Origin: an uncultured bacterium
GTDB taxonomy: Bacteria > Verrucomicrobiota > Verrucomicrobiia > Limisphaerales > UBA8199
Length of the DNA: 64,000 nt
Assembly: GCA_963749495.1 (NCBI GenBank)
Contig: CAVVMW010000018.1
Coordinates: forward strand, 62,240 to 126,239
Direction of reading: 5' to 3'
The notes beneath the pieces were generated by a model that searched no databases, was not told where the DNA came from, and worked only from the letters and a program-made list of their open reading frames with translations. Position numbers and translations under genes: made by a program. Positions 2,390 through 64,000 of the stretch are shown here, one piece after another (the first letter of the stretch is position 1; the number at the start of each line of letters is the position of its first letter).

Positions 2390-3994
2390 ATGACTGACTT
2401 TGCCCTCAGCCCACTCGACCTGGGCATCATCGTCGCCTCGATCCTGTTCTCGGTCGGCGTGGGGTTTTGGGCCTCGCGCCGCGTCGAGAAAACCACGCGT
2501 GGTTTTTTCCTGGCCTCCGGCAAGATGCCGTGGTGGCTCATTGGCGCCGCCTTCGTCTCGACCAGCGTCTCCAGTGAGCAAATCGTCGGCACGGTTGGGG
2601 CCGCTTACAAGCATGGCATGGGCATAGCCAACTGGGAATGGTGGTGTCTGCCCACCTATGGGCTGGTCATGGTCTTTTTCATTCCCCTCTACCTGAAGAA
2701 CCGGATTTCCACCGTCCCGGAACTGCTGACGCGCCGGTTCGGCCCTGCCTGCGCCGACATCTACAGTTGCGTCATCCTGTTGGCCTACGTCTTCCTTTTC
2801 CTCACGCCGGCGCTCTATGGCGGCAGCGTCACGTTCAGCAGGCTCACCGGCTGGCCGTCGGCGGCCGTGCTGGCGGGGATCGTGTTGCTCGTGGGATTCT
2901 ACACCATTCTCGGGGGACTCAGCTCGGTCATGTGGACCGATGCCATGCAGTGCGGCATGCTCGTGATTGGCGGCGTGGCGCTCTTCTTTGTCGCCCTGGG
3001 CCACATCCCAGGCGGATGGGCGGCCATGGTCCTGGCGGCACCCGAGCGATTTCATCTCTATCATCCTCCAAGCGACCCGCAGGCGCCCTTTCTGGGCCTC
3101 ATCACCGCGACCTTTGGTGTGTTCCTCTTCTACCAGTCCACCAACCAGGTGATGATCCAGCGCGTGCTCGCGGCGCGCAGCACCTGGGACGGCATGATGG
3201 GCATCGTGTTCGCCGGTTTCATTAACCTGCTGCGCCCGCTGGTGACCTGTTTGCTCGGGCTCGTCGTCTTCCATTGGATCGAGAAGATGGGCAAAGCCCC
3301 GTCGCTCCTGCCGGACAAACAGGACCAGGTCTTCCCGTTCGCGCTCGAGGTGTTCGCGCCATCGGGCTTGCGCGGCGTCATTCTCGCGGGCTTCATCGCG
3401 GCCGTCATGTCCTCGACCAGCGCCCTGGCCAATGCGGTGGGCACCCTCTTCTCGCTGGATGTCTATCGCCGCCTCTTCCGCCCTGCGGCCGGGGACCGCC
3501 AGTTGATCCGCGCCGGACGGCTCGCCTCGGGCGCGGCCCTGGTCCTGGCGTCTCTGACCACGCCGTGGGTGCCGCGCCTGGGTGGCATCTTCAAATACTT
3601 TCAAACCGGCGTGACCTATATGGCCACGCCCTTTGTTTCGGTGATCGTGCTCGGGATTCTCTGGAAGCGCGCCAACTACGCCGGCGCCCTGGCCGGCCTG
3701 CTGGGCGGACTCGTCATCCAGATCGGCCTGGCCCTGGCGTTGGGAGCGATGGACGTGCGGATGAACTGGCTGTTCATCGGCTCCACAGCGCAAGTCCTGA
3801 CGATGGCGCTGGTAGTGGTGGTCACCCTGCGCACCGCCCCGCCTGCCCCGCGCCAATGGGAGCCATTCCTCTGGCGGCCCTCGGTCCTCGCGCAATACGA
3901 TGAGGGCCGCCGCCGCCCGTGGTTCCAGCAGGTCAAAGTCTGGTTCGCCCTCTACGCCTTGATTTGGGCTTATATCTACTGGCGGTTCTGGTGA
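2390..3994 (+). CDS. Sodium:solute symporter family (SSS/SLC5) transporter
   Basis: 534 aa, multi-TM. N-terminus RGFFLASGKMPWWLIGAAFVSTSVSSEQIVGTVGAAY is typical of SSS transporters. Confidence 0.9.
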   Translation: MTDFALSPLDLGIIVASILFSVGVGFWASRRVEKTTRGFFLASGKMPWWLIGAAFVSTSVSSEQIVGTVGAAYKHGMGIANWEWWCLPTYGLVMVFFIPLYLKNRISTVPELLTRRFGPACADIYSCVILLAYVFLFLTPALYGGSVTFSRLTGWPSAAVLAGIVLLVGFYTILGGLSSVMWTDAMQCGMLVIGGVALFFVALGHIPGGWAAMVLAAPERFHLYHPPSDPQAPFLGLITATFGVFLFYQSTNQVMIQRVLAARSTWDGMMGIVFAGFINLLRPLVTCLLGLVVFHWIEKMGKAPSLLPDKQDQVFPFALEVFAPSGLRGVILAGFIAAVMSSTSALANAVGTLFSLDVYRRLFRPAAGDRQLIRAGRLASGAALVLASLTTPWVPRLGGIFKYFQTGVTYMATPFVSVIVLGILWKRANYAGALAGLLGGLVIQIGLALALGAMDVRMNWLFIGSTAQVLTMALVVVVTLRTAPPAPRQWEPFLWRPSVLAQYDEGRRRPWFQQVKVWFALYALIWAYIYWRFW

Positions 3995-4046
3995 GCCAAT
4001 AACACACATCGCGATTATGCAAAACAGCTATGATCCGTCTCCTGCC

Positions 4047-4342
4047 GCGCGGCCCAACGGGCCGCTAGAGCCTAGCCCAGGGCTGAGGCCGTCAGGCCGA
4101 TGCCCTGGGTGTTGGCCTCAGAAGTGCGCAAGGCGCCCTGAAAGAATTCCCGGAACAAATTCGCGCTTTGGGCCCCTGAACCTCGACACTGCGTTCCCGT
4201 CCCGCGAAGCGTTTTGGACTGCCGCAGTCCAAAACCTTCGGCCTTGGCGACGGTTCATGGAGAAGGCGCCAGACGGTTCTGGCGCCCCTTCAGGGCGCGC
4301 CGGTTCTCGCGCACGCCAGTCCCAGGGCATCGGCCTGGCGGA
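4047..4342. repeat. Family-2 composite repeat (right arm truncated)
   Basis: Contains AGCCTAGCCCAGGGCTGAGGCCG-CAGGCCGATGCCCTGGG, GCGCCCTGAAAG, AATTCGCGCTTTGGGCCCCTGAACCTC and the 25-bp palindrome GTTTTGGACTGCCGCAGTCCAAAAC. Colinear with 8018-8420 and 34896-35112. Confidence 0.85.
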
Positions 4343-7602: not shown

Positions 7603-7637
7603 CAATCTCCCACTGGACGTGGCCGACGGGAACGAGG

Positions 7638-7905
7638 GGTGCGATTAAAACTGGCGGTCAGCCCACGGCGCCTTTTTGCCCCGGAGGGGCTTCCGACAAT
7701 AGCCCGGCGTTTCAACGCCGGGTGCGCGGACCCAAGGAGCAGGTCCGTCCCGAAGGGACGGCTGAAAGCAAGGAGCGTTCTCAGTCGTCCCTTCGGGACG
7801 AGGGTCGCTTTTGTGGCCTCCCCGGCGTTGAAACGCCGGGCTATTGTCAGATGTCCCTCCGGGACAAAACCCCCGAGGCGCATGCCCGACGCTTTTAATC
7901 GCACC
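7638..7905 (+). repeat. Family-3 MITE-like element (about 268 bp, TIR GGTGCGATTAAAA)
   Basis: Terminal inverted repeat GGTGCGATTAAAA...TTTTAATCGCACC. Internal hairpins CCCGGCGTTTCAACGCCGGG (x2), GTCCCGAAGGGAC and GTCCCTTCGGGAC. Other copies at 43421, 56099, 60138 and 63908. Confidence 0.9.
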
Positions 7906-8017
7906 CGGAACCGATGCGGCCATTGACGCGATTGATACGACACAATCCCGACTGCCGCGCGCGTTTTGTCATTTCCCCATCCGTGTTCTTCAGATGAAGC
8001 TTAGGCTAACGTTGGCC

Positions 8018-12663: not shown

Positions 12664-12806
12664 CACGTCCTTCCAATTCTGCCGAAGCAAGCCCCTGGAC
12701 CCGTTCCAGGAGAGCGTGCTTGACCGGGTTTTTACCAAAAAGCGCCCTCCGTGTGAAGTGTGCGTTTGGGGGCACACCCCGCTAGGGCCCATCCTGACAG
12801 TCCCCC

Positions 12807-12918
12807 CGGAGTGCGCCCGTCCCCGGGCGCAGCGACGTCCGGAGCCAGCGCAGCGGTCAAACGCTCCACCGCGCCTGCTCGCCCCGTCGCTGCTGCGCCC
12901 GGGGACGGGCGCACTCCG
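12807..12918. repeat. Family-4 foldback repeat (about 110 bp)
   Basis: Perfect 26-bp arms GGAGTGCGCCCGTCCCCGGGCGCAGC / GCTGCGCCCGGGGACGGGCGCACTCC. Copies at 24151, 56027 (split) and 57790. Confidence 0.9.
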
Positions 12919-12967
12919 CTCGCCCTCGGCGGTGGGGGCAATGCCGGGATGCGCCTGCCCCTGCGGA

Positions 12968-24150: not shown

Positions 24151-24263
24151 TCGGAGTGCGCCCGTCCCCGGGCGCAGCAGCGACGGAGCCGGCAGGCGCG
24201 CCGGAGTACTCGGCCGCTGCCCTGGCTGCGGACATCGCTGCGCCCGAGGACGGGCGCACTCCC
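24151..24263. repeat. Family-4 foldback repeat
   Basis: CGGAGTGCGCCCGTCCCCGGGCGCAGCAGCGACGGAGC...GCTGCGCCCGAGGACGGGCGCACTCC. Confidence 0.9.
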
Positions 24264-24338
24264 CTCTCGCCGCAACCGGATCTGGTTTGACACCTCCGGG
24301 GCGATCTTTAGGCTTGGCTGACTGATTTTCGGAGCACC

Positions 24339-43356: not shown

Positions 43357-43420
43357 GACGTTCAATGTGCTAAAGCTTAGCACAGGTTCGACGGTCCGCA
43401 CCAGCGAATGTTCACTCGCG

Positions 43421-43687
43421 GGTGCGATTGAACGCGTGGGACATGCCCCTCGGGGTTTTGTCCCGGAGGGACATCTGACAATGGCCCGGCGTTTCAACGC
43501 CGGGGAGGCCACGAAAGGGACCCTCCTCCCGAAGGGACGACTGAGAACACTCCGTGCTTTGAGCCGTCCCTTCGGGACGGACCTGCTCCCTGGGTGCGCT
43601 CACCCGGCGTTGAAACGCCGGGCTATTGTCGGAAGCCCCTTCGGGGCAAAAGCTCGCCGTGGGCTGGCCGACCCTTTTCATCGCACC
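43421..43687 (-). repeat. Family-3 MITE-like element
   Basis: GGTGCGATTGAACGCG...CCTTTTCATCGCACC, reverse orientation relative to 7638-7905. Confidence 0.9.
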
Positions 43688-43761
43688 CCTCCGCGGGTCT
43701 TGACTGTCGCCCGGATGATGCCGCATCTTCTGGTCCGGACAGGTGCGACAGGTGATCTGAC

Positions 43762-48475: not shown

Positions 48476-48672
48476 GCGTCGCGGAGCAACGCAGTGAAGG
48501 TAGCCGTGGACCTCGGTCCACGGTTTGCGGCGTGGGAACGGACCCGCGTCGCGTAGCGACGGCTGACGGCCTCGCGGTTTTCAGGCGTCGCTCCGCGACG
48601 CGGTCGTGCTTGGGCCATGGGTCCGTGGACTGGAAGTCCACGGCTACCATCGGGCACCGCTACGCGGTGAGC
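48476..48672. repeat. Family-6 foldback repeat
   Basis: GCGTCGCGGAGCAACGCAGTGAAGGTAGCCGTGGACCTCGGTCCACGG...GTGGACTGGAAGTCCACGGCTACCATCGGGCACCGCTACGCGGTGA. Confidence 0.9.
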
Positions 48673-48796
48673 CGGACGCGGTCATGACCTGGGCCGTTGG
48701 CCCGGGCATGGGCCGCGCCGTTGGCGCTCCAGGCCATCAATCCATCAATCCATCAATCCATCAATCCCCCCCCGAAGGGTTCTTGCGCCCAGCAAC

Positions 48797-53802: not shown

Positions 53803-55929
53803 TCAGCGCCCCAGGGCCACCTCTTGCTCGGCATCCCGGTCGACTGGCAGCTCGAGCGTCTCATTTCGGGCGGCAAGCCCCTCGAGGTGGAGGAGGACCC
53901 TGTTGGGGCGGCTGCCCTTGAGCTGGGCCAGCCTGACGCGGGCACTCCGCCCATCGTCCGAAACGCGGACCTCCAGGCGCAACGGGCCGAACGGGGTCAG
54001 GACGCCGTTGAGGCGGGTGATGCTCCCCGGGCGGGCCCATTGCGAGGGGAACCCCTCCAGCAGGTGCAGTTCCCTGCCGCGGTCCAACTCCAGCAGGTGC
54101 GCCGTCAGGCGGACGAATTCGGCGCTGGCCCAATTGTGGGGCATGTCGCCCACTTCCTCATTGCCCTTGCCCGAGGGTTTCTGCTCCTCGCGCCAGACCC
54201 GGGTGGGGCTGGCGTGCTGGGCGAAGGCGTAGAGCACCTCGGCGGCCTCGCGGCCCTGGCCCTGCCAGAGCAAGGCATGGCCGTAAAAGGAAGCGAAGTA
54301 AGTCCAGATGCCGTCCCGCATCCAGCCCGTGTCGAAGACCATCCCCTCGACTTTGGTGGCCCCGAGCATCGCCAACTGGCCCGCGACCAGCGGGTCGTCC
54401 TGGGCAAACACCTGGCCCGGGTACACCGCATGGCAAAAGGCCCACTGGCCCCGCGCGGGCACATGCCCATCGAGATTGCCCATCATCGTCGGCAGGTAGG
54501 CATGGCCGAACCTGTCCTTGAGCAGGTCCCGCGCGGCCGCTTTGCGGAAGGCGGCGTTGAAATCGTCGAACTCCTCTTGCCATGCGCGGGCATCGGCGTC
54601 GTTCCCCAGCCAGCGCGCCGCGGCGATCGCCGCCTTGAGGCCCGCCAGGCACCAGCACGTGTTCGAGTACTCCGGCTTGTCGGTCGTGCCGATGCCGCCA
54701 TCGACGAAGCCCCCGGGCAGCAAGCGGTAATTGAGGGCTTGCGGGTCCGACGAGGCGCGCGCCCTCAGGTTCTGTATCGCCTTGACCACGCGCTGGAGGG
54801 CGGGCCAGCGCGCCCGCAGCCACTCCTTGTCCTGCGTCAACTGGGCATGCCGCACCGCCGCCCACAATACGATCCCGTTCTCTTTCCAGTACCTCCCCAG
54901 CAGCTCGAAGCTGCCGTCGGGCTTTTGGTGGCTCAGAAGGTACTCGATCCCGGCCCGGGCATCCTGGCCCCGGCCCAGCAACGCCGCCGTCTCCAGCAGA
55001 AACGAGCCGTCCACCACCCACAACCCGCGATAAACGGTCGGCCCGACATGGAACGCCGGCTGGCCCTGCTTGATCTCGCGCGCCTGCCAGATGTTGCGCA
55101 CGCACGATTCGAGCATGGCCTGGATGTCGGCGTCCGGCACCTGGATAGTGGCGAAGGGCAGGTCCGCCTGCTCCCACCATTGGCGGGCGGCGTCGCGCGC
55201 CTGGCGGGCCTGCTCGACGCTCAGCGCCCGCGCAGCTTTGGCGCCGTGCCGGCAGACCGTGAAGGCTGCCTGGCGGACCGCACCCGGCTCCATCTCCACC
55301 GCGGGCAGGCGCACCAGGGACTCCCTGGCGCCGTTGGTGCTGCACGACTCGATGCGCTCAGACGCCGCGATGCGCGTTCCTTGCCCCGCCTCGATTTCCT
55401 GGTCGTTTTCGTTGAAAACCACCGGCCCCGGGGTCTGGATGCGCAGGAGCGGCTGGCGGGTGGCGTTCTTGGCCGTGTTGTTGTGGAGCGTCACCAGGAT
55501 GACGGCTTGGCGTTCCGGCAGGCCCCCGCCGGCATTGGTTGCCGTCACGACGAAGGCCTCTTCCAATACCTCGACGCCTTGGGCGTCCTTCCGGGTCTGG
55601 ACAATCGGCGCCCGCGCCGAGGCGGTCTGCTGCCGCAACCAGCGCGCGCCGCCCGCTATCTCGGGCTGGGTGCAGATGCCGAAATTGCGCGCCCCGCCGC
55701 CCCCAAAATCCAGCAGCAGTTGGCCCTCCTTGCCCACCAGCATCTTGTCCGGGTCATCCGGCAGGCAGATGGCCGTCTGCCACCACGCGGGCGCGCAACG
55801 AAAATCCGCCCGCATCGGTTCCGCGACCCCTCCGGCGGCTGCCAGCGCCATGAGCAGCGCGGCCGCGGGGCCAAGGCGAAGGTGAGGGCCGCGCACAGGG
55901 GGCGAGGGGCGAGGGGCGAGGGTGTTCAT
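53803..55929 (-). CDS. Secreted hypothetical protein, (alpha/alpha)6-barrel glycosidase-like
   Basis: 708-aa ORF with a signal peptide. Helical-repeat composition (LLSHQKPDGSF, WCLAGLKAAIAAARWLG). Family not identified. Confidence 0.65.
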   Translation of the reverse strand: MNTLAPRPSPPVRGPHLRLGPAAALLMALAAAGGVAEPMRADFRCAPAWWQTAICLPDDPDKMLVGKEGQLLLDFGGGGARNFGICTQPEIAGGARWLRQQTASARAPIVQTRKDAQGVEVLEEAFVVTATNAGGGLPERQAVILVTLHNNTAKNATRQPLLRIQTPGPVVFNENDQEIEAGQGTRIAASERIESCSTNGARESLVRLPAVEMEPGAVRQAAFTVCRHGAKAARALSVEQARQARDAARQWWEQADLPFATIQVPDADIQAMLESCVRNIWQAREIKQGQPAFHVGPTVYRGLWVVDGSFLLETAALLGRGQDARAGIEYLLSHQKPDGSFELLGRYWKENGIVLWAAVRHAQLTQDKEWLRARWPALQRVVKAIQNLRARASSDPQALNYRLLPGGFVDGGIGTTDKPEYSNTCWCLAGLKAAIAAARWLGNDADARAWQEEFDDFNAAFRKAAARDLLKDRFGHAYLPTMMGNLDGHVPARGQWAFCHAVYPGQVFAQDDPLVAGQLAMLGATKVEGMVFDTGWMRDGIWTYFASFYGHALLWQGQGREAAEVLYAFAQHASPTRVWREEQKPSGKGNEEVGDMPHNWASAEFVRLTAHLLELDRGRELHLLEGFPSQWARPGSITRLNGVLTPFGPLRLEVRVSDDGRSARVRLAQLKGSRPNRVLLHLEGLAARNETLELPVDRDAEQEVALGR

Positions 55930-56026
55930 AGGCTGGGCTGGTTCTTTTCTGCGCGTCTATAGTCGAAATGCGACCGGGAGGCGAGTCAAAAAGGGCGGAG
56001 GGCGAGGCAAGGGCGCGTCCCTGCCC

Positions 56027-56417
56027 CGGAGTGCGCCCGTCCCCGGGCGCAGCAGCGATGGAGCGGGCAGGCGCGCAGGTGTGTTTGACCGCTGCCCAGG
56101 TGCGATTAAAAGCGTGGGGCATGCGCCTCGGGAGTTTTGTCCCGGAGGGACACCTGACAATAGCCCGGCGTTTCAACGCCGGGGAGGCCACAAAAGGGAC
56201 CCTCGTCCCGAACGGACGAGTGACAACACTCCTGGCTTTCAGCCGTCCCTTCGGGACGGACCTGCTTTTTGGGGCCGCTCACCCGGCGTTGAAACGCCGG
56301 GCTATTGTCGGAAGCCCCTTCGGGGCAAAAAGGCGGCCTTGGCTGGCCGACAGTTTTAACAGCACCCCCGCTGCCGTGGCTCCGGACGTCGCTGCGCCCG
56401 GGGACGGGCGCACTCCG
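56027..56417. repeat. Family-4 foldback repeat split by a family-3 MITE
   Basis: The left part 56027-56098 and right part 56367-56417 together match the intact copy at 57790-57897. Confidence 0.9.
56099..56366 (-). repeat. Family-3 MITE-like element nested in a family-4 repeat
   Basis: GGTGCGATTAAAAGCG...CAGTTTTAACAGCACC, flanked by CCGCTGCC at 56089-56096 and 56368-56375. Confidence 0.9.
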
Positions 56418-56599
56418 GTCCGGCCCCCGGCGTTGGGGGCGGTGTCGGGATGCGCCCCCCCTGTGCATTGAAACGCACAGTTTGCAACCCCCGGGGGGAA
56501 GCGAAGGGTGCGTAATGAAGCCCTGTGAAACAGCCATTCATTCATCGGACCGCGATCGACCCTCGATCCCCAGGCTTGACAAAACAGCGGGCCAAACGA

Positions 56600-56627
56600 T
56601 TGACTCCATCCGCGCAACAGATACAAT
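56600..56627 (+). promoter_or_regulatory. Sigma70-like promoter (TTGACT-16-TACAAT), 7 nt before the start codon
   Basis: TTGACT at 56600-56605, TACAAT at 56622-56627, GTG at 56635. Duplicated at 58082-58109. Confidence 0.5.
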
Positions 56628-56634
56628 CCCAGTT

Positions 56635-57384
56635 GTGAAAACGAACCCAAGATCTCCAGACCAGCCCCTGGCCTTTACGCTGATCGAGCTTCTGGTGGTG
56701 ATCGCCATCATCGCCATCCTCGCAGCGATGCTGCTGCCCGCCTTGGCGAGCGCCAAGGAAAAAGCGCAGCGTATGCAGTGCGTCAACAACAACAAGGAAT
56801 TGGGGTTGGCGGTAACCATGTACGCGACCGACAGCAGAGATATTCTCCCTTACCCGAATTGGAACCCGCCCTGGTATGCGGGCTGGCTTTACGCGCCTTA
56901 TGCGGGAAGCGTCCCTGACCCCACCCACAGCCCCTTCAATACGAACTCAACGTCGGCATACGGCAGCGGACAGATCTGGCAGTACCTCAAGAACATCGGA
57001 GTCTACCGGTGCCCCCTGGACAAGACCAACGCGCCGGACTGGAAGGTGCGGGCCAACAAACTGTCCACGTACGTCATGAATGGCGCGGTGTGCGCTTACG
57101 GCAATTTCGCTCCCCGAAGTTATAAGCTTTCCGACTTTAAGGCCACCGACTACATGATGTGGGAACCGGACGCGGACTTGATGGGGAACAACTACAATGA
57201 CGGCAGCAGCTACCCGGACGCGAATGAAGGCTTGGGCCACCGCCATGGCAAGATCGGAGGCATCGTCCTCGCCTTTGGATCGCATGTCCTATTCGTCCAA
57301 TACGCCAAATGGGCGAAGCTCAGCGCGAGCCCAACCAGAAACGAACTGTGGTGTAGTCCCGGCAACCCCCAAACGGGCCGTTAG
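56635..57384 (+). CDS. Prepilin-type N-terminal methylation domain protein (pseudopilin paralog 1)
   Basis: [37 protein letters not shown]. Ends at an in-frame TAG, followed by 31 more codons homologous to the paralog 2 tail. Confidence 0.8.
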
Positions 57385-57488: not shown

Positions 57489-57851
57489 ATGCACCGCAAA
57501 CCCGCCATGCCCGCTCAGAAGCCCTTGCGCACCAGCCTTGTTTCTGCCAAGAGATGGCTCGATTGGACAGCCGTCTTCTGCCTGCTCCTCCTCATCGCCT
57601 GCACCCTGGCGGGCTGCAAGAAGCCCGTCGCGGGCACTAACGCCCACTCGAGGCTCCTTCAGTCGGCCGCCCCCAGATCAAGTCCGCAAACGTTGTCGCG
57701 GAACCCGAGCTGCGGGTCGAGTGCCGACTCGCGCTTTCCGACCCGTCCGACCGGTCCCCACCCCCCCTGGCGTATCGCGACACTGCCCGCGGAGTGCGCC
57801 CGTCCCCGGGCGCAGCAGCGACGGAGCGGGCAGGCGCGCCGCAGTACTTGA
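57489..57851 (+). pseudogene. Small lipoprotein paralog, 5' fragment only
   Basis: KRWLDWTAVFCLLLLIACTLAGCKKPVAGTNAHSRLLQSAAP matches 59637-60029 up to about 57685. The ORF then runs into unrelated sequence and a family-4 repeat. Confidence 0.6.
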
Positions 57852-57897
57852 CCGCTGCCCTGGCTGCGGACGTTGCTGCGCCCGAGCACGGGCGCAC
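57790..57897. repeat. Family-4 foldback repeat (intact)
   Basis: GGAGTGCGCCCGTCCCCGGGCGCAGCAGCGACGGAGCGGGCAGGCGCGCC...GCTGCGCCCGAGCACGGGCGCACC. Confidence 0.9.
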
Positions 57898-58081
57898 CCC
57901 CATCTCGCCGCAGCCGGTGGGGGCGGTGTCGGGATACGCCCCCCCCTGTGCGCTGAAACGCACAGTTTACAACTCCTGGGGGGAAGCGTAGGATGCGTAC
58001 GTAAGCCCTGTGAAACAGCCATTCATTTATCGGACCGGGATGGACCGTCAATCCAGGCTTGACAAAACCGCGCGCAAACGA

Positions 58082-58109
58082 TTGACTCCACCCGCGCAAC
58101 AGATACAAT
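58082..58109 (+). promoter_or_regulatory. Sigma70-like promoter (TTGACT-16-TACAAT), 7 nt before the ATG
   Basis: TTGACT at 58082-58087, TACAAT at 58104-58109, ATG at 58117. Confidence 0.5.
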
Positions 58110-58116
58110 CCCAGCT

Positions 58117-58962
<846 letters not shown>

Positions 58963-60029: not shown

Positions 60030-60137
60030 CGTGCCGTCCCGCTGACGGGCACCCCAAATTGCAAAGCGCCTGGAGATGCGCGGCACGCCCGCGTTCTGGC
60101 TCCATGAGCGCCGCCCCGCCCGGCCGGGGGATTATTG

Positions 60138-60403
60138 GGTGCGATTAAAACTGTCGGTCAGCCCACGGCGCCTTTTTGCCCCGAAGGGGCTTCCGACAAT
60201 AGCCCGGCGTTTCAACGCCGGGTCAACGAACCGAAAGAGCAGGTCCGTCCCGAAGGGACGGCTGAAAGCAACGAGTGTTCTCAGTCGTCCCTTCGGGACG
60301 AGGGTCCCTTTTGTGGCCTCCCCGGCGTTGAAACGCCGGGCTATTGTCAGATGTCCCTCCGGGACAAAGCTCCAAGGGGCATGCCCACTCTTCTAATCGC
60401 ACC
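60138..60403 (+). repeat. Family-3 MITE-like element with a perfect 9-bp flanking duplication
   Basis: GGTGCGATTAAAACTG...CTTCTAATCGCACC. GGGATTATT occurs at 60128-60136 and 60405-60413. Confidence 0.9.
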
Positions 60404-60828
60404 TGGGATTATTCCAACCATTGACACCCCAACCCCTTGGGCTAGATTGCGGCGCATGATGACGCCGCGTAACGAGACACGACAGGGCCACCCGGCCGCG
60501 GGCGCTTCCCGACACTGCCCCCGGAGTGCCCTCGTCGCCGGGCTGAAAGCCCGAAATGTGACAGCCTGGGCTGGAGCGAGCTTGCGAGCGGAGGCCCAGG
60601 TCATCGGGCCGGAATCTGGCGCGCCCTGTAGGGGCGCCATAAGGTCCCGGCCCTACAGGCCGGGGCTTTTCGAGGGGCACTGGCTTACCCGGGCCTCCGC
60701 TCCGCTCCAGCCCGGGCCATCACATGGCGGGCCTTCGGCCCTGGGGCGCCGGGGGGGATTGGTCCGGGCCAGGCAGGAAATGCCGGACATCTCGATGGCG
60801 GCGGTGTATAGTGATCCGGATTGAGTTC

Positions 60829-63837: not shown

Positions 63838-63907
63838 CTTGTGCCAGCCGCAGGGCAAAGAGCAAGAATAGAAGTGCTTTCTCCCGAAAACCTGAATGGG
63901 CGAAACG

Positions 63908-64000
63908 GGCGCGATTAGAACTGTCGGCCCGCCGCCGGGGCCTCTTTGCCCCGAAGGGGTTTCCGAGAGTAGCCCGGCGTTTCAACTTTCAACGCCGGGT
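63908..64000 (+). repeat. Family-3 MITE-like element, partial (runs off the window)
   Basis: GGCGCGATTAGAACTGTCGG...GCCCCGAAGGGG...AGCCCGGCGTTTCAAC, a diverged left end. Confidence 0.8.

Follow-up and report, generated by a model that had tools for sequence, protein, structure and literature searches.

Nested insertion of a miniature element with Acido-Lenti-1-type hairpin modules into a second repeat of an uncultured Verrucomicrobiota bacterium

Bacterial MITEs are mobilised in trans by DDE transposases, enzymes that make staggered cuts and leave target duplications of fixed length. HUH/Y1 enzymes, among them those of IS200/IS605 and REP/RAYT, insert beside a fixed tetra- or pentanucleotide and give no target duplication; Y1 enzymes are not known to generate target duplications of fixed length, and REPINs are not reported to possess tails with terminal repeats and 9-bp target-site duplications (TSDs). 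Inverted units that flank a transposase gene are called REPtrons, or 'TIRtrons' when the transposase is of the TIRYT type, and an Acidobacteria-specific group has been noted (Di Nocera et al. 2013, PMC3733652). The TnpA-Y1 proteins of subclass 1.2 occur mostly in Cyanobacteria and Bacteroidetes, generally without terminal secondary structures (Quentin et al. 2018, PMC6006769). In Rfam, family RF01687 (Acido-Lenti-1 RNA; Weinberg et al. 2010, PMC2864571) is entered as an sRNA gene whose function is unknown and which is 'sometimes near group II introns'. A link between RF01687 and REPtron or TIRtron systems was not found in the literature searched.

The locus described here lies in a window, the whole stretch of 64,000 nucleotides of DNA that was analysed, from an uncultured member of the Verrucomicrobiota. 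At 56026-56418 one repeat (family-4) is interrupted by another (family-3), and the following features can be distinguished:

56026..56097, no strand assigned: left half of the interrupted family-4 copy, including the hairpin arm GGAGTGCGCCCGTCCCCGGGCGCAGC; aligns to intact copies
56089..56097: left copy of the TSD, CCGCTGCCC, 8/9 identity with the right copy
56098..56367, minus strand: family-3 element, 270 bp and nearly palindromic, from a four-copy alignment
56098..56111, plus strand: left terminal inverted repeat, AGGTGCGATTAAAA; consensus GGGTGCGATTAAAA
56138..56183, minus strand: RF01687 two-hairpin motif reading outward to the left end, 45.6 bits against a threshold of 37
56282..56327, plus strand: RF01687 two-hairpin motif reading outward to the right end, 40.2 bits against 37
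56354..56367, minus strand: right terminal inverted repeat, TTTTAACAGCACCC on the plus strand, with 2 mismatches to the consensus
56368..56376: right copy of the TSD, CCGCTGCCG, 8/9 identity with the left copy
56377..56418, no strand assigned: right half of the interrupted family-4 copy, from arm complementarity and alignment to intact copies

The outer arms of the interrupted copy (56026-56053 and 56391-56418) are 100% complementary over 28 nt and match both ends of three intact copies elsewhere in the window:

12806..12920, no strand assigned: family-4 copy, matched and aligned
24151..24266, no strand assigned: family-4 copy, matched and aligned
57789..57904, no strand assigned: family-4 copy, the intact paralogous unfilled site, with the target 9-mer at 57852-57860

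A unit rebuilt from 56026-56097 and 56377-56419 measures 115 bp, and its end-to-end alignment with the intact copies gives 87-90.5% identity. If 56098-56376, the element plus one TSD copy, is deleted, the site becomes colinear with 57776-58273 (86% over 501 bp), and the junction (...TTGACCGCTGCCCTGGCTCCGGACG...) is free of gaps. In view of this gap-free colinearity and the full-length match, the two flanks are the halves of one family-4 unit, as the preliminary description had supposed. The unfilled comparator was a paralogous site in the same window instead of a related strain; its intact copy contains the 9-mer CCGCTGCCC once, and the predicted unfilled allele of 56026-56418 reads ...GACCGCTGCCCTGGCTCCGG.... 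Since the target CCGCTGCCC is present on both sides of the element, the break was staggered by 9 bp, and the insertion took place through this break, which was subsequently filled in. The interruption and the duplicated target that had been noticed from the letters therefore stand, with two corrections: the element is 270 bp long in the four-copy alignment instead of 268 bp, and the 8 bp seen on both sides (56089-56096 and 56368-56375) are the identical part of a 9-bp TSD. Searches with 28-nt and 30-nt repeat probes gave 8 and 6 matches, respectively, where 0 were expected. The nested insertion is a clean, ordinary proof of the transposition of a miniature element.

The intergenic site falls between two divergent genes, a glycosidase-like one, for whose protein no relative above 71% identity was found, and a DUF1559/prepilin-like one. 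In this single case the insertion point is just 3' of the centre of the family-4 palindrome. At 55885-55925 a short tandem GGGGCGA repeat (GGGGCGAGGGGCGAGGGGCGAGGG) immediately precedes the annotated start of the glycosidase-like gene, which is on the minus strand; the repeat falls inside a longer open reading frame that starts at 55929, and the database gene call (682 aa) starts downstream.

The ends of the element were placed at 56098 and 56367 because it can be aligned end to end with three other family-3 copies. It matches the nhmmer profile with E=1.8e-95 and, folded as DNA, reaches -97.4 kcal/mol (z=-11). Within 64 kb there are four complete copies of 268-270 bp, 88-93% identical in pairwise comparison, and one partial copy; the copy at 56098 is oriented opposite to those at 7637 and 60137. 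In testing for TSDs, the 9-mers directly outside the ends set by the four-copy alignment were compared in strict register, against a null of 20,000 random pairs of sites from the window. The copies, including one from an unrelated MAG, are:

7637..7906, plus strand: family-3 copy with flanks GGGAACGAG / GGAACCGAT, 6/9, chance P 2.5e-2
43420..43688, minus strand: family-3 copy with flanks 3/9 in strict register, not significant; 6/9 with the ends shifted by up to 2 nt
56098..56367, minus strand: family-3 copy with flanks 8/9, chance P about 7e-4
60137..60404, plus strand: family-3 copy with the perfect TSD GGGATTATT at 60128-60136 and 60405-60413, 9/9, P 1e-4
63907..64000, plus strand: fifth family-3 copy in the window, partial, nhmmer E=3.7e-16, model positions 2-86
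Locus L023, unrelated MAG: family-3 copy with flanks 7/9, chance P 4.5e-3

A significant TSD in the same register accompanies four of the five complete copies (P 1e-4 to 0.025, with n=5 only); the copy at 43420 has no convincing one. The length of 9 bp is a trait of the family, and the claim of the preliminary description that family-3 moved by transposition with duplications of about 9 bp agrees with what these other copies show. The copy in locus L023 is 78-81% identical to those in the window, with which that locus shares nothing else. The partial copy is truncated where the window ends and contains a small internal duplication (TTTCAACTTTCAAC) in its hairpin 1. Directly outside the left ends no shared tetranucleotide was found (CGAG, TATT, GGAG, GCGG, GGAG, AAAC), which is evidence against targeting of the IS200 type.

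Both ends of every window copy carry the 14-bp terminal repeat GGGTGCGATTAAAA with 0-2 mismatches, the copy at 56098 having one and two. The two arms within a family-3 copy are only about 76% alike, whereas the outermost 14 nt agree between the two ends; by this comparison the termini are conserved beyond the general similarity of the arms. The ends of the L023 copy are more diverged but keep the core CGATTA. Terminal inverted repeats together with a TSD of fixed length and no target specificity form the signature of staggered-cut transposition. In being small (270 bp), non-coding and multicopy, in its terminal inverted repeats, its fixed 9-bp TSD without target consensus and its nesting in other repeats, family-3 resembles the bacterial MITEs, and the earlier classification as a MITE holds with respect to form. 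It does not hold for the interior, which is not an internally deleted IS but a doublet of hairpin modules of the REP/TIRtron-like kind, tied in other genomes to Y1 transposase loci.

The insertion at 56098 is later than the family-4 copy that it interrupts. That family-3 as a whole is younger than family-4, as was also claimed, does not follow from this single order of events; the identities within the families (83-91% for family-4, 88-93% for family-3) are weakly suggestive of such an age difference. With one mismatch in its TSD, mismatches in its terminal repeats and 7-12% divergence between the copies, the insertion is not recent.

In an Rfam scan, all the matches that passed the gathering score of 37 were to RF01687, eight in number, at 38.2-45.6 bits. 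Each complete family-3 copy of the window has two of them, one on either strand and both directed outward from the middle, and the two-hairpin RF01687 consensus with its GGCUA linker was found in each arm. Hairpin 1 is CCCGGCGTTGAAACGCCGGGCTATTG. Family-3 is composed of two head-to-head modules of about 95 nt with three hairpins each, the Acido-Lenti-1 motif included. Each module continues into a tail of 41 nt, at whose end lies the 14-bp terminal repeat. The presence of pairs and tandem arrays is also a property of the RF01687 seed alignment itself.

When the 26-nt core of hairpin 1 was scanned against one genome per species, at least 93 loci were obtained; the source genome of the window is outside the listed loci. 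Most of these loci belong to Verrucomicrobiota and Acidobacteriota, and among the matches listed the core also occurs in Phycisphaerae, Chlorobiota, Ignavibacteriaceae, Capsulimonadaceae and others. The common unit in the listed loci consists of TTCAGCCGTCCCnnnGGGAC, about 22 variable nt, CCCGGCGTTGAAACGCCGGGCTATTGTC and a third hairpin, and with the family-3 profile most of the at least 93 listed loci were found to hold inverted doublets of this unit; family-3 tails are present among them only in L023. The core is identical across MAGs of several phyla, while the Y1 proteins of loci L034 (Verrucomicrobiota) and L052 (Acidobacteriota), discussed below, are only about 57% identical. This contrast points to very strong constraint on the sequence of hairpin 1 or to horizontal spread. 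Some loci are from MAGs labelled Akkermansia or Bifidobacteriaceae, which by appearance are binning errors.

Several variants of the doublet were seen. Within the window, a diverged doublet at 48480-48680 has a hairpin 1 of CCGTGGAC...GTCCACGG, followed by CTACCATC, with an outer hairpin CACCGC..GCGGTG and inner hairpins CGTCGC..GCGACG; it scores under the Rfam gathering score and matches the family-3 profile weakly (E=4e-4), so that the genome contains at least two covarying module families. In locus L094 (about 2480-2580) a minimal palindrome, GCCCCGAAGGGGC-TTCC-GACAATAG-hairpin 1-CTATTCTC-...GTTCCTCCGGAAC, has a single hairpin 1 common to two inverted linkers and outer hairpins. Four loci of the Phycisphaerae MAG DATIKE01 (L003, L018, L080, L090) have doublets in which hairpin 1 differs between the arms (CCCGGCG...CGCCGGG versus CCCACCG...CGGTGGG). 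In these the local hairpins are kept and the long palindrome is broken, and they adjoin short tandem repeats (GTTGCACGAGGCCT-like). The ends of tail-less doublets in other MAGs are too ragged for TSD scoring; CAGCTGC on both sides of the doublet in L063 was not counted.

When the open reading frames within 2.5 kb of the motif in the at least 93 loci were clustered, a single cluster proved to be linked to the element; it comprises proteins of about 148 aa from 16 loci, which tblastn extended to 17 of the 93 listed loci. The other clusters (at most 6 loci each) are by appearance conserved neighbouring genes, and no element-linked cluster of DDE transposases was found within this distance. The 148-aa protein belongs to the Y1/HUH transposases, with a Pfam Y1_Tnp match of E=6e-28; it scores 66.4 bits with the NCBIfam IS200 equivalog (cut-off 55) and fails the cut-off of REP_Tyr_transpos (23.9 versus 80 bits); the nearest solved structures are the TnpA proteins of ISDra2 and IS608. 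Its motif Y---Q--HH (EYIRGQEAHH) places it, by motif alone, in subclass 1.2 (Quentin et al. 2018, PMC6006769). Its family is a very large and conserved one, with at least 7987 matches of which the top 120 are 86-100% identical, and the members are labelled 'RayT' by JGI and IS200/IS605 by NCBI.

Wherever both flanks could be read among these 17 loci, from Verrucomicrobiota and Acidobacteriota MAGs, the Y1 gene is bracketed by two inverted units that read outward, and RF01687 matches flank the gene in L034, L071, L019, L048 and L055. The arrangement in the first of these is:

L034: Y1 gene at 3798-4241; RF01687 at 3698-3744 (minus strand) and at 4290-4335 (plus strand)

The core modules of family-3 are homologous to the arms of the Y1 loci. 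These loci show no evident tails and no evident flanking duplication, the inverted repeat stopping at the outer hairpin. Several Acidobacteriota Y1 loci adjoin one and the same neighbouring gene, and the Y1 locus itself appears immobile. In the Acidobacteriota loci L052, L085, L065, L076 and L093 the unit is found upstream of a conserved gene (start MKTFEQI...), with the Y1 gene next to the unit in L052 and L085 and absent in L065, L076 and L093. This suggests that the Acidobacteriota Y1 locus is syntenic and vertically inherited, and that occasional loss of the gene leaves the repeat behind.

A second lineage of tailed doublets is present in Verrucomicrobiota (L001, L025, L028, L054, L066, L073). 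Its doublet is like that of family-3, but its tails are unrelated and end in CAGGGYTGACGCATATCAATTTTG, with the terminal repeat CAGGGYTGACGC.... The only complete and uncomplicated copy (L066, 5634-5937) has 10-bp flanks that match at 8/10. Since this lineage combines unrelated tails with matching flanks, the tails may be an intrinsic, fast-evolving part of the doublet elements instead of borrowed IS ends. CAGGG-ended tails may have an ISAs1-like origin, and GGTGCGA may bear an IS5-like similarity. In L054 (60-480) two elements are fused via a tail. In L001, L025, L028 and L073 the elements lie at the ends of the loci; several contigs of MAG JBDSYB01 end inside CAGGG-tailed elements, which implies a high copy number.

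For the mobility of family-3, a non-autonomous element, we regard it as reasonably probable that it has a REPIN-like core and is moved in trans by an enzyme that cuts with a 9-bp stagger. The non-autonomous status follows from the absence from the window of both a Y1 gene and further terminal-repeat pairs. Family-3 would then be a hybrid: its core may be a doublet of the REPIN/TIRtron type, and its conserved 14-bp termini would be recognised in trans by a transposase whose gene lies at another place in the genome and whose cuts are staggered by 9 bp in a DDE-like way, the REPIN-like core being either the ancestral part or cargo. However, the sole enzyme family tied to the modules is Y1/HUH. 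The search for a cognate transposase that the preliminary description had proposed gave no positive result: no transposase with family-3-like terminal repeats was found in the window, family-3 had no match in the plasmid collection, and among viral contigs neither the terminal-repeat pattern nor the 26-nt core was found. In metagenomes, a 32-nt A-arm pattern matched three loci, none of them family-3 (Y1-flanking units and one minimal palindrome).

The main alternative, in which family-3 would be a REPIN-type doublet moved by an IS200-like Y1 enzyme through recognition of single-stranded DNA hairpins, with the tails as part of the substrate, seems to us unlikely, although several facts are in line with it. 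The inner modules of family-3 recur around Y1 genes in 17 of the 93 listed loci, the doublet is the common form across phyla among the listed loci, the Y1 family is as large and conserved as described above, and flanking repeats are found in two lineages with unrelated tails. Against it, known HUH/Y1 chemistry uses a fixed tetra- or pentanucleotide and leaves no TSD, whereas the TSD of family-3 is fixed at 9 bp and its flanks have no tetranucleotide in common; moreover, the Y1 loci themselves lack tails and flanking duplications, and the window contains no Y1 gene.

With REPIN/RAYT systems and TIRtrons (Bertels & Rainey 2011, PMC3116915; Di Nocera et al. 2013, PMC3733652) family-3 shares the inverted hairpin doublets in intergenic DNA and the presence, in other genomes, of RF01687-type units in inverted orientation around a Y1/HUH gene. 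Family-3-type units nevertheless have no GTAG-type 5' tag, the module-linked Y1 protein falls outside the RAYT (TnpA-REP) clade by its REP_Tyr_transpos score, and the tails with 14-bp terminal repeats and 9-bp TSDs set family-3 apart from REPINs; the insertion without TSD at a conserved tetranucleotide that typifies REPIN/RAYT is not what family-3 displays. From IS200/IS605 elements, which have same-strand end hairpins, the element differs in the lack of a gene and the possession of terminal inverted repeats and TSDs, and the Y1 loci differ in that their flanking units are inverted where both flanks are readable. The Y1 protein is, like those of subclass 1.2 to which it was assigned by motif alone, short and IS200-like with the Y---Q--HH motif, but here the genes come from Verrucomicrobiota and Acidobacteriota and have conserved hairpin modules on their flanks. 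The RF01687 motif, annotated as an RNA gene, is in family-3 one module of a mobile DNA repeat and lies on both strands.

That family-3 is a convergent pair of sRNA genes, as the Acido-Lenti-1 label in Rfam would have it, and not a mobile element, we consider very improbable. In its favour, all eight matches are above the Rfam threshold, and covariation in the two stems was reported when the motif was first described (PMC2864571), but covariation is equally compatible with hairpins of single-stranded DNA. The motif invariably comes in inverted pairs, one member per strand, within a unit that has terminal repeats and TSDs; it flanks transposase genes, it is found in tandem arrays and doublets, and the sole promoter-like site in 55850-56700 is outside the element. 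This genomic arrangement, seen at the level of sequence, argues for a DNA-level repeat over a transcribed sRNA.

The surroundings of the insertion are themselves repetitive. The family-4 copies are 83-91% identical to one another; each arm consists of GGAG followed by the hairpin TGCGCCCG-TCCC-CGGGCGCA, and the whole is a REP-doublet-like palindrome with a DNA fold of -46 kcal/mol (z=-4.5). In a Verrucomicrobiae MAG, a relative of family-4 (L077, 4160-4270) preserves the hairpin of one arm through compensatory changes (GCGGCCG...CGGCCGC), and family-4 is thus a structured REP-like doublet outside the source genome as well. Around the insertion, about 500 bp are present in duplicate with 86% identity (56014-56950 versus 57776-58273); the duplicated segment holds family-4, the upstream region, a sigma-70-like promoter (TTGACT-16-TACAAT at 56600-56627) and the first 50 or so codons of two paralogous prepilin-type genes, both of which have the N_methyl motif and the first of which also matches DUF1559. 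The family-4 copies at 56026 and 57789, being inside this segment, are not independent insertions, and the paralogous copy at 57789 therefore serves as a natural unfilled control. Most simply, the insertion at 56098 postdates the segmental duplication. Downstream of the duplicated segment the bodies of the prepilin-type genes are much more diverged, a pattern that suggests gene conversion or recombination confined to the 5' region. The idea that there was no insertion, and that two partial family-4 copies flank family-3 by chance or through recombination between repeats, can draw on the repeat-rich region and the 500-bp segment duplicated nearby but has a next to negligible probability, given that the halves join into a full 115-bp unit with exactly one 9-mer in surplus, that the 28-nt outer arms are fully complementary, that the 9-bp signature also occurs at unrelated sites, and that the junction, checked for a gap or overlap beyond the 9-mer, showed none in the alignment to 57776-58273.

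What the element means for RF01687 goes beyond this locus. A curated Rfam 'sRNA' family would be reassigned to mobile or repetitive DNA, with consequences for how thousands of loci are annotated across Verrucomicrobiota, Acidobacteriota, Planctomycetota and further phyla. The motif is now tied to an abundant and highly conserved family of IS200-like Y1 proteins, whose motif belongs to a subclass described as generally without terminal secondary structures (PMC6006769), unlike the module-flanked genes found here. There is also a mechanistic conflict between a core that resembles a Y1 hairpin substrate and ends with terminal inverted repeats and 9-bp TSDs. The boldest interpretation, for which we see only a slim chance, is that the Acido-Lenti-1 'sRNA' is the recognition module of a very widespread Y1 system (IS200-like, Y---Q--HH) and not an RNA gene, and that its tailed, gene-less doublets transpose with fixed TSDs of 9-10 bp. 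If that were true, transposition of the Y1 modules would represent either a new insertion chemistry of HUH/Y1 enzymes or a hitherto unseen cooperation of a Y1 locus with another enzyme.
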